This document shows, one piece after another, positions 2,208 to 7,246 of a stretch of DNA of 36,552 nt. Origin of the DNA: a virus. Below the pieces are notes generated by a model. The model was not told where the DNA came from, did not search any database, and saw only the letters and a program-made list of their open reading frames with translations. The stretch is from UHGV virus genome UHGV-0029170. The stretch is one strand, 5' to 3'. Position numbers and translations under genes: made by a program. Position 1 is the first letter of the stretch. Each line of letters opens with the position of its first letter.

Positions 2208-2703
2208 TTAAAACGTGAACAAATTTTAGGTAAGATTGATGATTTCAGTCTTACCTTTTTTTATGCCAAAAATTCAGCAACTTACCAACTGGTCGAACCA
2301 CTTTAGGTAAGATTTAGTAAGATGAATCTTACGTAAATTTCGCGCAAAATTTAACCAATTACACGCCATATATAGATAGTAAGTATATGATAAATAATAA
2401 TATTATTATTATTTCTCTATCTCTCTATACTTATCTTGGTAAGATTTCTCCGGGGTACGTGTCTTTTTTCGCTGGATTTCGCGCCAGATTTTTCATGGAT
2501 ATTCACCTATAGGGATCTTACCATCTTACCGATTTGCGTTAACTTTATGAAATGTATGGAAAAAACCACGTAAGATGCATCTTACTAAATCTTACGTAAA
2601 TTTCGCTCATTTTTTGACCAACCGCAGATAGCACTTTTTGACTTGCGCCGGGAATCGTCATGCGTATACTTAACGAAACGAAACCACAAATGGAGCAATA
2701 TCA
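2208..2703. repeat. AT-rich non-coding region with GGTAAGAT iterons, palindromes and direct repeats; candidate origin of replication / regulatory hub
   Basis: No ORF; GGTAAGA-N13-TCTTACC (2229-2255); GTAAGAT-2nt-ATCTTAC at 2317-2332 and 2570-2585; 18-bp direct repeat ATCTTACGTAAATTTCGC at 2326-2343 and 2589-2606; tandem ATCTTACC x2 at 2515-2530; pure A/T core 2367-2435. Confidence 0.5.
2628..2685 (+). promoter_or_regulatory. Conserved cassette copy in plus orientation (ATAGCACTTTTTGACTTGC...TATACTTAACGAAACGAAAC) upstream of exonuclease gene
   Basis: Shares Box A, a TATACT hexamer and the CGAAACGAAAC tail with the minus-strand copies; followed by RBS GGAG and ATG 2704. Confidence 0.5.
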
Positions 2704-3750
2704 ATGGCTGAAGCAATTTTCAGGGCATACACAAGCAGTGAATTGACCAACGAGCAATATCACGATCCTAATTCCTGGTGCGCGGAGTACGTTAGCGGCT
2801 CAAGCCTCGGCGAGATTTACGCAACATCCCCGGCGCACTGGAAATACAAGGTGCGCGAGGAAACCGCCGCGCTGGCGTTCGGAACCTGTTCGCATACCTG
2901 TATGCTTGAGACGGCAAAATTTAATGGCGAGTACCTGCGGGCGACTTCTCCTGGCGAGGTTAAAGATCTGATTACGTCGAAGTCGGCATTGTCTGCGAAG
3001 CTGAAAGCGTGTGGCCTGATTGGGACGTCCAACAAGGATTACCCGGAACTTCTGGAAATGGCATATCGCGCCGGGATTGACGTAAATGTTTGGTGGGCGA
3101 TTGAACTTTGCGACGAAAGCGCCGCGATGAACTCCGGGCGCAAGCTGGTTAAGGATGTTGATTTCGATGCCGTTGTTCAAATGCGAAGCGTGATGCTGGC
3201 CAACCCGCGACACGCCGCGTGTATCGAATCGCCTACCGCACAGCGTGAATTGTCAATCTTCGGTGAGATCTTCGGCGTCAAGGTCAAGGTTCGACTCGAT
3301 CATGTTGACGTTGTTTCAGATCCAGAACTAATCAAGGAGTGTGGGTTCAACCCGGATGAGGTTTTCGAGGTCGTGGTGATTACCGACTACAAAACCACGC
3401 AATCTTCCAAGCCTGACGATTTCGGGCGACTCGCCTTCAACTTGGGCTACTATCTCAAGATGGCATTGCAGCGCGATCTGTTCGTGAAGACTTACAACGA
3501 AAAACGCCCGGTAGTTGTCAGACTGCTAACGCAGGAGAAAAAATCACCGTTTGCTCCGCTGGCGTTCACCCTGACCAGCCAGCAGATCGAGATCGGTCGC
3601 AAGCAGTATCAAAGCGTGATTCATCAGTATGCGGAATGCGTGAAGCATGATTCATGGCCATCATATGAGTCAAACGCGGCGGAAGTCGTTTTGCCTACTC
3701 CGCAGTTTGTGAAATACATGTTCCCGGACGTATACGGCACAAATAGCTAA
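2704..3750 (+). CDS. PD-(D/E)xK family nuclease (putative recombination exonuclease)
   Basis: 348-aa ORF with RBS; D-x(n)-D/E-x-K-like segment ...DHVDVV...VVVITDYKTT; immediately upstream of Erf and SSB. Confidence 0.55.
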   Translation: MAEAIFRAYTSSELTNEQYHDPNSWCAEYVSGSSLGEIYATSPAHWKYKVREETAALAFGTCSHTCMLETAKFNGEYLRATSPGEVKDLITSKSALSAKLKACGLIGTSNKDYPELLEMAYRAGIDVNVWWAIELCDESAAMNSGRKLVKDVDFDAVVQMRSVMLANPRHAACIESPTAQRELSIFGEIFGVKVKVRLDHVDVVSDPELIKECGFNPDEVFEVVVITDYKTTQSSKPDDFGRLAFNLGYYLKMALQRDLFVKTYNEKRPVVVRLLTQEKKSPFAPLAFTLTSQQIEIGRKQYQSVIHQYAECVKHDSWPSYESNAAEVVLPTPQFVKYMFPDVYGTNS

Positions 3751-3809
3751 ACACTGGTTCGCACTTGTGATATAGTGCGCATTACCAATCAGGAAAAGGA
3801 AACTTTATC

Positions 3810-4466
3810 ATGCGCACATCTGAAAAATTTACCACCATCGCAGCCGCATTAATCAAGGCAAAATCTGGCTTCGTGGCCGCAAAGAAAAGCGGGAAGAACA
3901 ACCATCTTGGGAACACCTATGCGAATCTTGGTGATATCCTCGACGCTATTTCCCCGGCGCTGGAGAAGAACAAAATTATGGTCATTCAATCCATGATGGA
4001 TACCAGCACCGAAAAGGTTATGCACCTCGAAACTATGTTTTTGCATGAAAGCGGCGAGTTCATGGCGTTTCAGTACAATATGCCGATCAGTAAAACAGTC
4101 GAGCAAGCATATGGTTCAACAACATCTTACGCCCGCCGCTATGCACTGGCCGCAGCACTTGGAATCAAGCAGGCGGATGATGATGCAGAAATTACGAAAA
4201 TGACACCGAAAGACTTCAAAAAACGCATTGACGCGTGCGAAGATCTCGAATCGCTTCGGGAGATCTATAAGATGGCGAAACAAACGTTAACGCCTGCGGA
4301 ATGGAAAATGACGGAAGACGATATCACCAAACGCCAGGCAGAACTGAAAGTCACCCCGGCGAACGGCTTCAACCCTGGTAAACCGCAAGAGGTTGCTAAA
4401 CGGGAGCCGGAAAAGGTAGAATCAAAGCCCGAACCAGAAGCGCAAGATATCTCATCTTTCAACTAA
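3810..4466 (+). CDS. erf: Erf-family single-strand annealing protein
   Basis: RBS AGGAAAAGGA before ATG 3810; GSTTSYARRYALAAALGIKQADDDAE matches the conserved Erf core (P22 Erf GATSSYARKY...GIDDAKDAD) from memory. Confidence 0.75.
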   Translation: MRTSEKFTTIAAALIKAKSGFVAAKKSGKNNHLGNTYANLGDILDAISPALEKNKIMVIQSMMDTSTEKVMHLETMFLHESGEFMAFQYNMPISKTVEQAYGSTTSYARRYALAAALGIKQADDDAEITKMTPKDFKKRIDACEDLESLREIYKMAKQTLTPAEWKMTEDDITKRQAELKVTPANGFNPGKPQEVAKREPEKVESKPEPEAQDISSFN

Positions 4467-4495
4467 TTTAACCGGCGGGAAACCGCCCCATAGGA

Positions 4496-4966
4496 ATGAC
4501 AATGCATGTTGTAACAGGTGTTATCCGAAAGGAACCGTATGTCAAGGAAGGCAGCAACAATAACGGGCTGTGGAAAATGTACGCCGTAGACCTGTCGGAG
4601 CGAATGAAGATCCGCAATCGTGATGGCCAGGACGAAACGGTTTACACGAACTACCGCGCCGTTTTCTTTGCCAAAGAAAACATGATTAAGTGGTACGACG
4701 AAGCGCTGCAAATTGATAAGGTGATCAGCGTCACCTGTCGGACGCTTCAGATCGTGAACCGCGAGCACAACGGCACAATTTACAGCCACAATGAAATGAT
4801 TATGCCGCAACTAGAATTCAGCCAGCGCGAACCTGCGCAAAGCGGCGGAGGCAATCAACAATCCGGATGGGGTCAGCCTCAGCAACCGAAGCCGCAGCAA
4901 GCGCCTAAACCGCAAAACAGCGGCGGGAATCCGGGGATGGATTTCGATGATGATATCCCGTTCTAA
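4496..4966 (+). CDS. ssb: SSB-like single-stranded DNA-binding protein with host-SSB-like C-terminal tail
   Basis: C-terminus ...SGWGQPQQPKPQQAPKPQNSGGNPGMDFDDDIPF ends in the E. coli SSB tip DFDDDIPF after a Gly/Gln/Pro-rich linker; N-terminal ~110 aa compatible with a divergent OB fold. Confidence 0.6.
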   Translation: MTMHVVTGVIRKEPYVKEGSNNNGLWKMYAVDLSERMKIRNRDGQDETVYTNYRAVFFAKENMIKWYDEALQIDKVISVTCRTLQIVNREHNGTIYSHNEMIMPQLEFSQREPAQSGGGNQQSGWGQPQQPKPQQAPKPQNSGGNPGMDFDDDIPF

Positions 4967-4977
4967 CTTGACAACTA

Positions 4978-5003
4978 AAGGAGCCGAAAGGCTCCTTTTT
5001 TTT
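4978..5003 (+). terminator. Rho-independent terminator after ssb
   Basis: GGAGCC-GAAA-GGCTCC hairpin (4980-4995) followed by T8 (4996-5003). Confidence 0.75.
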
Positions 5004-5059
5004 CCTGTTTATTGATGCTATTATCTTCGTTACTCAACCAACCAAAGAGGACTAAAAAC

Positions 5060-7246
5060 ATGGCACTATACAGAGAAGGCAAAGCGGCTATGGCCGCCGA
5101 CGGAACCGTTACCGGGACTGGCACAAAATGGCAATCATCGCTTTCGCTGATTCGCCCAGGCGCGACGATTGTGTTTTTATCGTCACCAATTCAAATGGCC
5201 GTCGTAAACAAGGTGGTCAGCGACACTGAAATTAAAGCAATTACCACAAGCAGCGCTGTCGTAGAGTCTACTGACTACGCGATCCTATTAAGTGACTCTC
5301 TGACCGTTGACGGACTGGCGCAAGATGTTGCGGAAACTTTGCGCTACTATCAGTCGCAAGAAACAGTAATTGCGGATGCGGTCGAGTTCTTTAAGGAGTT
5401 CGATTTCGAATCGCTACAAAATCTTGCCAACCAAATCAAGGCAGACTCCGAAGCTGCTGAATCAAGCGCCGAGGCTGCGGCGACGTCTGAAAGTAATGCT
5501 AAAACTTCAGAGACTAAAGCCAAAGAGTCTGAAAATGCGGCAAAAAGTTCAGAGGTAGCAGCGGAGACTGCAAGAGACCAAGTACAGCAGATCATCAATG
5601 ATGCTGGCGAGCAGTCAACGCTGGTTGCGCTTGCTTCACATACGTTGCCAGGAGCATCAAAAGTCGCTCTTGCTGACGGATTTCTGAACGACTACATAAA
5701 GGAAAAAACTTATGAGTCACTTGGTGCTAAATTCGATGGCATAAACGATGATACTGCTGCGATCCAGGCAGGAAATGAGCTTGTAAAGCAGGGTTATTTA
5801 GTAAAGGCAGTAACGCCAAACGGTAGGGCGAGGATTACTTCACAAGTAACATTTTATGCTGGTTCTGGAGCTGTTGACATGGGTACGGCTTATCTGAAGC
5901 CTGATAGGAATTTGATGACTACTGGCTATGCGGCAAGGGTTATTGGAGACAATACGAGAACATATAATCTTGGCAGCAGATTGATAATCAATATGATTGG
6001 CCCATATGGTGAAATAGGTGAAAAGCCACCTACTGACACCAGTAGTATTACTACGCAACTATGCGGCCTAAATATCGACCCAGGTACTAATACACAGGTA
6101 TCTAATTTGGATATTAGTTGGAAGATCTTTGGATTCATGAAAAACGTAAGAATTGGGAGCAAGTCTGTATATTTGATTCGCGCATGGGGGCCAATGCATA
6201 GCAAAGCATGGGTTTGCAATGTTGAGTTTGACTGTCAAAATGACGCTGGAGAAAATATTAACTTCTTCGGCGGCACTGGTTCAGATTGCAGGAACTCTGA
6301 AAAAACTGCGGCTGATATCTATTCAACATCTGCAGGTCATTTTTTAGGACTGAATCTTATTGGTTATAGTCAGGATTATAATGATGTTGATTTAGACATC
6401 AATGGTGGGTACGTTTATAAATTAGCTGGTCAATTTGAAAATAACTCATTACAGCCTTATGTAAAAATGTCATATACTGTCGGTAAGCGACACCCAACTG
6501 TAATACTACAAACAGTTAATATTGATGGTGGTAATGACCAGGCGCAGGAGGCGGGAAACACTGGACGTCCTGCATGGTTTAAGATTGGTAATGGATGTAT
6601 TTTTCATGCTGACGGTGGAACATGGGGTAAGTATGATAAAATGCACAACACAAAGTTATTTGATGTAAGCGCTAATGGGCCTATTGCACTTAGCGTAAAA
6701 AATATTTACTTCGATACTTATGACGGTGTTGATAGCATAGAATGGGGAGCGCACGGAAACCCGATTAGGAATTATGATTTTAGCGATCACTCATTATCTG
6801 GTTGGAAAACAGAATATACATACCCATCAGGTGGTACACCAGTACCTCCGACGATAACGTATGACGATTCTAAGCCAATAGGAAAAGCAGTTAAAATTTC
6901 ATCGTCAGTTAGCAACGGTGGAACAACGACGCTATTCGGTCAGAAGATACCAGTAACTCCTGGAGGCATACTTTACATGTCCACAAATCTTTATTGGGAA
7001 AATATAGTCACAACAAACGGAACAGCATATTTCGGATATACGTTCTATGATGCATTTGGTGATGAAATAACGCACAACAACATAGGTGTAAACTTGAATT
7101 TGCAGCCAGCAAACGCTACAGCACCAGTTTTGTGCTCTGGTAGGGTGCGCATTCCTTCTGGTGCGGCATTTGTGCATGTTGGAATTCGCCATTATCAGAT
7201 GAGCGGAGATGTATGGATGGGTAAGATGAATGCATTTGTTCAATGA
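5060..7246 (+). CDS. Lateral tail fibre / tailspike with pectate-lyase-like (depolymerase-type) central domain; mosaic
   Basis: ATG at 5060 with AGAGGA RBS (ORF track start 5012 lacks RBS); Ala/Ser/Glu-rich fibre-like stretch; motif [17 protein letters not shown] typical of beta-helix pectate-lyase-like tailspikes; sequence after ~5.65 kb is markedly AT-rich by eye. Confidence 0.7.

Follow-up and report, generated by a model that had tools for sequence, protein, structure and literature searches.

The ssb Locus and Its Gene Neighborhood

The window analyzed here, the whole 36,552-nucleotide stretch of the virus genome UHGV-0029170, carries three co-oriented genes, exo, erf, and ssb, on the plus strand. 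The first of these (2704..3750) encodes a RecE/exonuclease VIII-like PD-(D/E)XK nuclease (Pfam PF12684, 1.4e-15; phrog_412 “exonuclease VIII,” 2.7e-97), and the second (3810..4466), which lies immediately upstream of ssb, encodes an Erf-family single-strand annealing protein (PF04404 ERF, 1.2e-23; phrog_155, 6e-46). The last gene, ssb (4496..4966), comprises 156 codons and a stop codon, with a translation exactly as first quoted in the original prediction. The group is closed by a strong intrinsic terminator (4977..5003, plus strand), in which a hairpin with a 9-bp stem and a GAAA loop (4977-4998) is followed by a T-run. The adjacent and co-oriented genes for the nuclease, the single-strand annealing protein (SSAP), and the SSB form a recombination module that is predicted to be a single transcription unit. 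A second hairpin, which consists of a G+C-only 5-bp stem and a GAAA tetraloop (GGCGG-GAAA-CCGCC) with no T-run after it, is located in the erf-ssb spacer (4474-4487) and might act in the stability or processing of the RNA or influence the translation of ssb. Farther upstream, a primase-like ORF with a GTG start (1245-2207, 320 aa) matches only the N-terminal half of phrog_510 (positions 10-321 of 667); a primase-helicase zinc ribbon is its sole Pfam match above threshold, and a terminator-like hairpin follows it (2228-2256).

Many Klebsiella phage genomes match nucleotides 2700-5100 of the window along the entire segment with 96-97% identity, and the four genes that they have in this segment are annotated as exonuclease VIII, Erf-like annealing protein, single-strand DNA-binding protein, and tail fiber. 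The source belongs to Webervirus, a T1-like genus of the Drexlerviridae, and is a phage of Klebsiella. E. coli, which had originally been taken as the host, must be replaced by Klebsiella, and the SSB tails of the two hosts are almost the same.

Comparison of the ssb ORF with its counterpart in phi1_146047, a 97%-identical relative, revealed 0, 2, and 12 differences at the first, second, and third codon positions, respectively. This substitution pattern identifies 4496..4966 as a real gene that is under purifying selection in the plus-strand frame. An antisense ORF with a TTG start (4463..4810, 115 aa) was rejected as unsupported, because the substitutions fit the plus-strand frame. A Shine-Dalgarno-like AGGA, as read from the sequence (4492..4495, plus strand), abuts the ATG at 4496 and is located 6 nt upstream of another ATG at 4502; many homologs start with MHV or MPH, and the annotated coding sequence of phi1_146047 starts with MHV. 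This spacing and the starts of the homologs make the ATG at 4502 the likelier initiation codon, so that the true product probably begins with MHVV and comprises 154 aa.

A PHROG profile search matched residues 1-156, i.e., the full length of the protein, to phrog_44 “single strand DNA binding protein” with high significance (E = 3.1e-28, 100.3 bits), which places it in this group. The SSBs of the T1-like Drexlerviridae (phrog_44) are its direct homologs: they occupy the same place after exonuclease VIII and Erf and are annotated as SSBs in GenBank. The homologs from E. coli T1-like phages are 41-57% identical to it by tblastn and 60-67% identical in full-length alignment. Those from Klebsiella Webervirus genomes are 88-98% identical (OB-domain query region) and already bear the SSB label, so the gene call itself adds nothing. 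There is no difference of substance between the present gene and these homologs; it is one of them, and the feature is already known as a gene annotated as SSB in hundreds of genomes. The annotation is uneven among the GenBank relatives (e.g., OR896849.1, LR757892.1, and NC_049842.1), with several Webervirus records giving “hypothetical protein,” and one GenBank record describes the whole exo-erf-ssb stretch as “similar to terminase large subunit” and “similar to hypothetical protein.”

The order exonuclease-Erf-SSB is also found in the Webervirus relatives and is conserved in another Drexlerviridae subfamily, namely in an E. coli Warwickvirus, where one extra small gene is present. The Vibrio-phage homologs do not adjoin an Erf gene; thus, partnership with Erf is not a property of the OB protein family as such. 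The complete genome of phi1_146047 is annotated with a primase, two helicases, an SSB, and the exonuclease/Erf pair, and neither a DNA polymerase nor a second SSB is annotated in it. The original proposal that the protein serves the adjacent Erf/exonuclease module agrees with the exo-Erf-SSB unit and its terminator, but it covers a part of the matter only, because the Vibrio homologs stand apart from Erf and no polymerase is annotated in the lineage.

A Predicted, Divergent OB Domain

Structure prediction, which had been suggested as a check on the N-terminal domain, assigns residues 1-111 (4496..4828, plus strand) to a divergent SSB/PriB-type OB fold. In the AlphaFold2 model of the monomer, which was built from a 32-sequence alignment, these residues form a confident barrel (block-mean pLDDT 75-95), with a predicted order of three strands, a helix at residues 61-70, and further strands. 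This arrangement is consistent with the SSB-type OB fold, in which the barrel has five strands and long hairpins and strands 3 and 4 are separated by a helix. Among the top 50 PDB matches in Foldseek, 49 were SSB or PriB (E about 1e-5 to 2e-4), the sole exception being an RNA-editing OB protein, and all named matches in BFVD were SSBs except two, a DUF3127 protein and an uncharacterized protein.

At the level of primary structure, the N-terminal ~110 residues had been described as not E. coli-like, and the searches agree with this description. BLASTP against E. coli SSB aligned the tail alone and left the N-terminal domain unaligned; phmmer and BLASTP comparisons with the E. coli and Klebsiella SSBs found nothing beyond the tail; and a sequence search of the PDB returned matches in the tail (7f2n and 1eqq) and none in the N-terminal domain. 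Neither the query nor any of 25 diverse family members matched the Pfam SSB model PF00436, or any other credible Pfam family, at E<=1. Weak Pfam matches to Botulinum_HA-17, TFIIA, and DUF3127 were below threshold and were discarded as noise. In a different class of phage SSBs, represented by T7 gp2.5 and Enc34 ORF6 (DUF2815), a variant of the OB fold is combined with an acidic tail that ends in Phe and contacts replication proteins; the present protein matched neither the gp2.5/DUF2815 family nor its fold variant.

A close architectural counterpart is the bacterial homotetrameric SSB (PF00436; PDB 1eqq, 1eyg, and 7f2n), which has the same succession of OB domain, linker, and acidic tip and on which the predicted phage fold superposes. 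However, the OB domain of the phage protein is only about 11-21% identical to the bacterial one in structural alignments and is invisible to Pfam and BLASTP. An hhalign comparison with a gammaproteobacterial SSB profile gave a weak match of low probability (E = 0.023) with the same order of elements. The conserved aromatic residues that stack on bases in E. coli SSB are W40, W54, F60, and W88. In this weak alignment, the invariant Y53 falls on W54 and the near-invariant F58 on F60; S34-E35 is paired with the SE of TSESW, W40 is paired with M37, and W88 is located outside the aligned region. The replacement of W40 by Met37 suggests that the mode of DNA binding may differ from that of E. coli SSB.

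When 1.84 billion representatives were searched, the family defined by this domain amounted to 32 clusters at 50% identity; a larger database yielded 483 clusters at 90% identity. It is a small, phage-only family without Pfam coverage. The missing Pfam model for the OB domain is the likely cause of the inconsistent annotation of the gene, since pipelines that rely on domains label such proteins “hypothetical” in many records.

It could be argued from these properties that the protein is not a general SSB at all but a PriB-like primosome adaptor, a loader or mediator of Erf, or an origin factor, in which the tip would serve merely as an address label. PriB is indeed present among the top structural matches, although bacterial SSBs outnumber it among the best of them, and PriB possesses neither the linker nor the tip, whereas the phage protein has the complete SSB architecture. 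The failure of every Pfam SSB model to match the domain, the narrowness of the family (the 32 clusters mentioned above), and the substitution of Met for W40 of E. coli SSB would be compatible with a specialized function; by contrast, the weak hhalign alignment pairs the invariant aromatic residues with stacking positions of SSB, and the complete genome of the relative is annotated with no other SSB gene. We consider such a specialized role to be very improbable.

The C-Terminal Tip and the Linker

The last nine residues of the protein (M148-F156; 4937..4963, plus strand) constitute the acidic tip MDFDDDIPF. The original prediction of a host-type SSB tip was borne out in full: the SSBs of K. 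pneumoniae (PDB 7f2n) and E. coli (1eqq) have the same residues at 9/9 positions of their tips, and the ending DDDIPF is that of bacterial-type SSBs. The identical tip is found in 70 of the 80 gammaproteobacterial ssb loci among the matches listed. Within the phage family, 118 of the 120 closest clusters retain D(D/E)IPF despite their hypervariable linkers, and the exact host form MDFDDDIPF is specific, among these 120, to the Klebsiella clade (17 clusters).

The tip is joined to the OB domain by a Gly/Gln/Pro-rich linker (residues 112-147; 4829..4936, plus strand), whose length and sequence differ greatly from one family member to another. The pLDDT is below 50 for residues 112-151 and 154-156 in the AlphaFold2 model, and residues 112-156 are predicted to be disordered. 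In pLDDT, composition, and hypervariability, this segment corresponds to the intrinsically disordered linker of bacterial-type SSBs. The linker contains GWGQPQQP (residues 124-131; 4865..4888, plus strand), an exact 8-mer that is common to the phage protein and the host SSB and is the same as the block conserved in the SSB linkers of Enterobacterales, Vibrio, and Aeromonas. In the block around it, 13 of 16 residues are identical (GGGNQQSGWGQPQQPK in the phage, GGGQQQGGWGQPQQPQ in Klebsiella). When the phage linker was subjected to 5000 composition-preserving shuffles, the shared 8-mer had p = 0.001 and the Smith-Waterman score p = 0.0006; thus, the likeness of the linker to that of the host exceeds what Gly/Gln/Pro composition or low complexity would produce. 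A similarity limited to low-complexity composition, which had been named in advance as one observation that would refute the prediction, is accordingly not the case, as the conserved tip is present and the shuffle p is about 0.001.

The description of the linker and tip as a “near-exact copy” of their host counterparts is nevertheless appropriate for only a part of the tail. The tip (9/9) and the GWGQPQQP block are shared, but the phage linker comprises about 38 aa, compared with about 53-56 in the host SSB, and is about 15-18 residues shorter than that of bacterial SSBs, and the host segment GGNQFSGGAQSR is absent from it. BLASTP against E. coli SSB aligned the tail with 39% identity over 41 columns and a 12-residue gap (E = 0.004), and in a gapped global alignment with the host, 32 of the 47 phage tail residues were identical and 15 differed. 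The tails of the E. coli and Klebsiella SSB sequences used in these comparisons agree with the PDB alignments, that of Klebsiella with the 7f2n alignment over residues 117-174; the Klebsiella-type query recovered Enterobacteriaceae SSBs with 93-96% identity.

Proposed Function

The predicted fold and the alignments are in line with the original claim of an SSB-type protein, in which the OB domain is followed by a disordered linker and an acidic tip identical to that of the host. We consider it quite likely that the protein is the phage's own SSB, whose OB domain coats ssDNA and whose tip recruits both host partners and Erf; ssDNA binding, the oligomeric state, and every protein-protein contact of the phage SSB are inferred. 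The diverged OB domain (residues 1-111) would coat ssDNA that arises from phage replication or forks and from the upstream RecE-like exonuclease, and the flexible Gly/Gln/Pro linker would present a tip that does not differ from the one on the SSB of Klebsiella or E. coli. SSB-interacting proteins dock on this peptide, so that ssDNA coated by the phage SSB could recruit the partners of the host SSB, such as the Pol III chi subunit, primase, PriA, RecO, and ExoI, and the neighboring phage Erf annealase would most likely be recruited by it as well. The outcome would be that a phage without a DNA polymerase of its own could use the host replisome, and that Erf would reach SSB-coated ssDNA.

The original suggestion that the protein plugs into the host SSB interactome is plausible and matches established knowledge of SSB tails; phage and plasmid SSBs that carry the host C-terminal docking peptide are themselves an established idea. 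The nine-residue SSB tip alone accounts for the binding of RecO, PriA, PriC, and chi, to which the linker contributes nothing (Shinn et al., PMC7145534). RecT/Redbeta annealases recognize about the last seven residues of SSB, and this recognition sets their host range (Filsinger et al., bioRxiv 10.1101/2020.04.14.041095). By analogy with the precedents of Redbeta/RecT and Sak4, a contact between the SSB tip and Erf may be expected in the present phage. The Sak4 precedent comes from phage HK620, whose SSB is encoded beside this annealase and stimulates annealing and recombineering only with its last six residues in place (Hutinet et al., 2018, PMC5928155). In both phages, a phage-encoded SSB adjoins a single-strand annealing protein; however, Sak4 is a RecA-like ATPase and not an Erf protein, the HK620 tip is NDYPPF in contrast to the host DDDIPF, and the relation between SSB and annealase is experimental in HK620, whereas that of the Webervirus SSB is deduced.

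Recombination need not be the main reason for which the tip is maintained. Since no polymerase is annotated in the near-identical phi1_146047 genome, coupling to the host replisome is at least as likely to be the reason. Phage T1 needs the Pol III elongation genes of its host for DNA synthesis, which fits a phage without an annotated polymerase.

A tip identical to that of the host would also make competition with host SSB physically unavoidable once the protein is abundant. The protein may therefore be imagined as a decoy or competitor, which draws SSB-interacting proteins (e.g., ExoI, RecQ, RecO, and PriA) off the host SSB. Its effect would be to shut down host repair and replication restart, or to protect phage ssDNA ends, and not productive recruitment. 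In a 2026 preprint, an unrelated phage SSB-like protein that ends in FDDDIPF was proposed to perturb SbcB/ExoI activity and to trigger the defense system DRT10 (bioRxiv 10.64898/2026.04.29.721553). This protein, Bas52_0087, is divergent and has a disordered C-terminus, as does the Webervirus SSB, and an interface with host SSB partners such as ExoI has been proposed for it as the DRT10 trigger (10.64898/2026.04.29.721553); however, it has a two-OB architecture, exceeds 350 aa, and belongs to an unrelated phage. A lineage without an annotated DNA polymerase, on the other hand, needs productive coupling to host enzymes, and the gene resides within a recombination/replication operon and not among early host-takeover genes. 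Moreover, competition and recruitment are not mutually exclusive. A protein that acts primarily as a decoy thus appears unlikely to us, and although the phage SSB may compete with the host SSB to some degree, nothing favors competition over a simple use of host partners.

A search of the literature retrieved mentions of the Drexlerviridae and Webervirus SSBs and their OB family in genome announcements only, and no biochemical work on them. If the phage SSB functions as proposed, the compact exo-Erf-SSB cassette with its host-compatible tip could be of practical use in Klebsiella phage engineering and Erf-type recombineering.

Tails across the Family and Their Origin

Besides delimiting a phage-only OB family that Pfam does not cover, the present analysis adds that similarity of the linker follows the host lineage. 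Weberviruses combine a host-like linker with an MDF tip, whereas E. coli T1-like phages mostly end in N/S/M-QFDDDIPF and have plain Gln-rich linkers. Most of the latter linkers are nearly pure poly-Gln/Arg/Pro of variable length, with QFDDDIPF kept. In a shuffle test from which the last six residues were excluded, Webervirus linkers had z = 6-7, compared with z = 0.0 and 0.7 against enterobacterial linkers and 1.8 and 2.2 against Vibrio linkers for the E. coli T1-like phages; the E. coli T1-like linkers are no more host-similar than their own shuffled versions. The GWGQPQQP block turns up in a number of separate lineages, distant representatives among them. It is kept by Weberviruses, by some E. 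coli phages (e.g., NBD2), and by Vibrio phages.

The Vibrio-phage homologs, which are about 32-36% identical by tblastn, have tails of the form ...QGWGQPQQPQQAP...PQYN(E/N)PPMDFD(D/S)DIPF. PQYNEPP is typical of the SSBs of Vibrio, Photobacterium, and Aeromonas, whereas Enterobacterales SSBs have SNEPP. Vibrio-phage linkers had z = 11-16 against Vibrio SSB linkers and z = 5-13 against enterobacterial ones. The tails can be summarized as GWGQPQQP ... (E/N)P(P/G)MDFDDDIPF in members from Enterobacterales phages and GWGQPQQP ... PQYNEPPMDFDDDIPF in members from Vibrio phages. Judged from these sequences, the tails follow the host lineage beyond the universal tip, either by repeated exchange or by selection.

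A tempting, if rather doubtful, generalization is that the phage-specific OB family treats its disordered tail as an exchangeable, host-matched module. Such a module would imply repeated capture of, or homogenization with, the 3′ ends of host ssb genes. Host-like linkers beyond the tip could then be selected for allowing phage and host SSBs to mix in cooperative filaments or condensates. Mimicry of the linker would in that case be a second, optional layer, given that plain poly-Gln has taken the place of the linker in many E. coli T1-like phages, which keep the tip. Tails that track the host would provide a simple natural system in which to study for which function selection maintains the SSB linker, a point still debated for E. 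coli SSB.

The records of 19 “Campylobacter phages” also match the phage SSB. One of them, “Campylobacter phage C4” (MG065657.1, UNVERIFIED), is classified as a Hanrivervirus (Drexlerviridae) with an Erf-SSB pair and an enterobacterial-type tail, GGWGQPQQ...PPMDFDSDIPF. Its record is unverified, its stated host is doubtful, and it was set aside as uninformative about host tracking.

The significant protein-level similarity of both linker and tip, and the tails that follow the host lineage, with PQYNEPPMDF in Vibrio phages and post-IPF extensions like those of some bacterial SSBs, could be accounted for by a recent chimera, in which the 3′ end of a host ssb was recombined onto the phage OB-domain gene. 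The comparison genes were ssb genes from close Enterobacteriaceae (93-96% identical SSB), with no Klebsiella locus among the matches listed. Local alignments of the tail DNA with seven enterobacterial ssb genes fell in the middle of a null distribution obtained from random back-translations of the same tail peptide with phage codon usage (p = 0.31-0.58 over the seven hosts). In two identical motifs, the third-position matches between phage and host were 0.50 and 0.62, which are not above those between hosts (0.58 and 0.65). No match below E = 2 was obtained when nt 4800-4970 were compared by blastn with the complete genomes of E. coli (5426), and matches at that level, which occurred in 61 of the 5426 genomes, covered the tip codons alone. 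In addition, the linker lacks one host segment, and 15 of its 47 tail positions differ from those of the host.

The tail DNA is thus no more host-like than the identity of the peptide requires, and synonymous sites, the back-translation null, and blastn agree in giving no sign of recent capture. DNA-level capture tests of Vibrio phage/host pairs were likewise negative except for one borderline case, in which an excess of DNA similarity was found at p = 0.003; as one of 12 comparisons, it is not robust after multiple testing. For the present tail, as compared with enterobacterial ssb genes and E. coli genomes, a recent chimera is highly unlikely. The likeness of the tail is kept at the protein level, through an old acquisition or through selection, and the tail may have been captured in the distant past.

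Another hint of exchange comes from the very end of the protein. The tails of the Vibrio phage K437b protein and of one metagenomic representative run about 15 residues past IPF (APVGLQFGKKFMHVI, APFGLQYSSHAIHSL), and these extensions resemble those in two bacterial ssb loci (L030 and L080). The sites at which such extensions were found are L083 (2995-3531), P0125, and the two bacterial loci, with IGFGYDCSRVAIHAL as a further example. The occurrence of one type of extension on unrelated OB domains suggests, at the level of sequence, that the tail is an exchangeable module. An extension past IPF would bury the C-terminal Phe, which is normally free.
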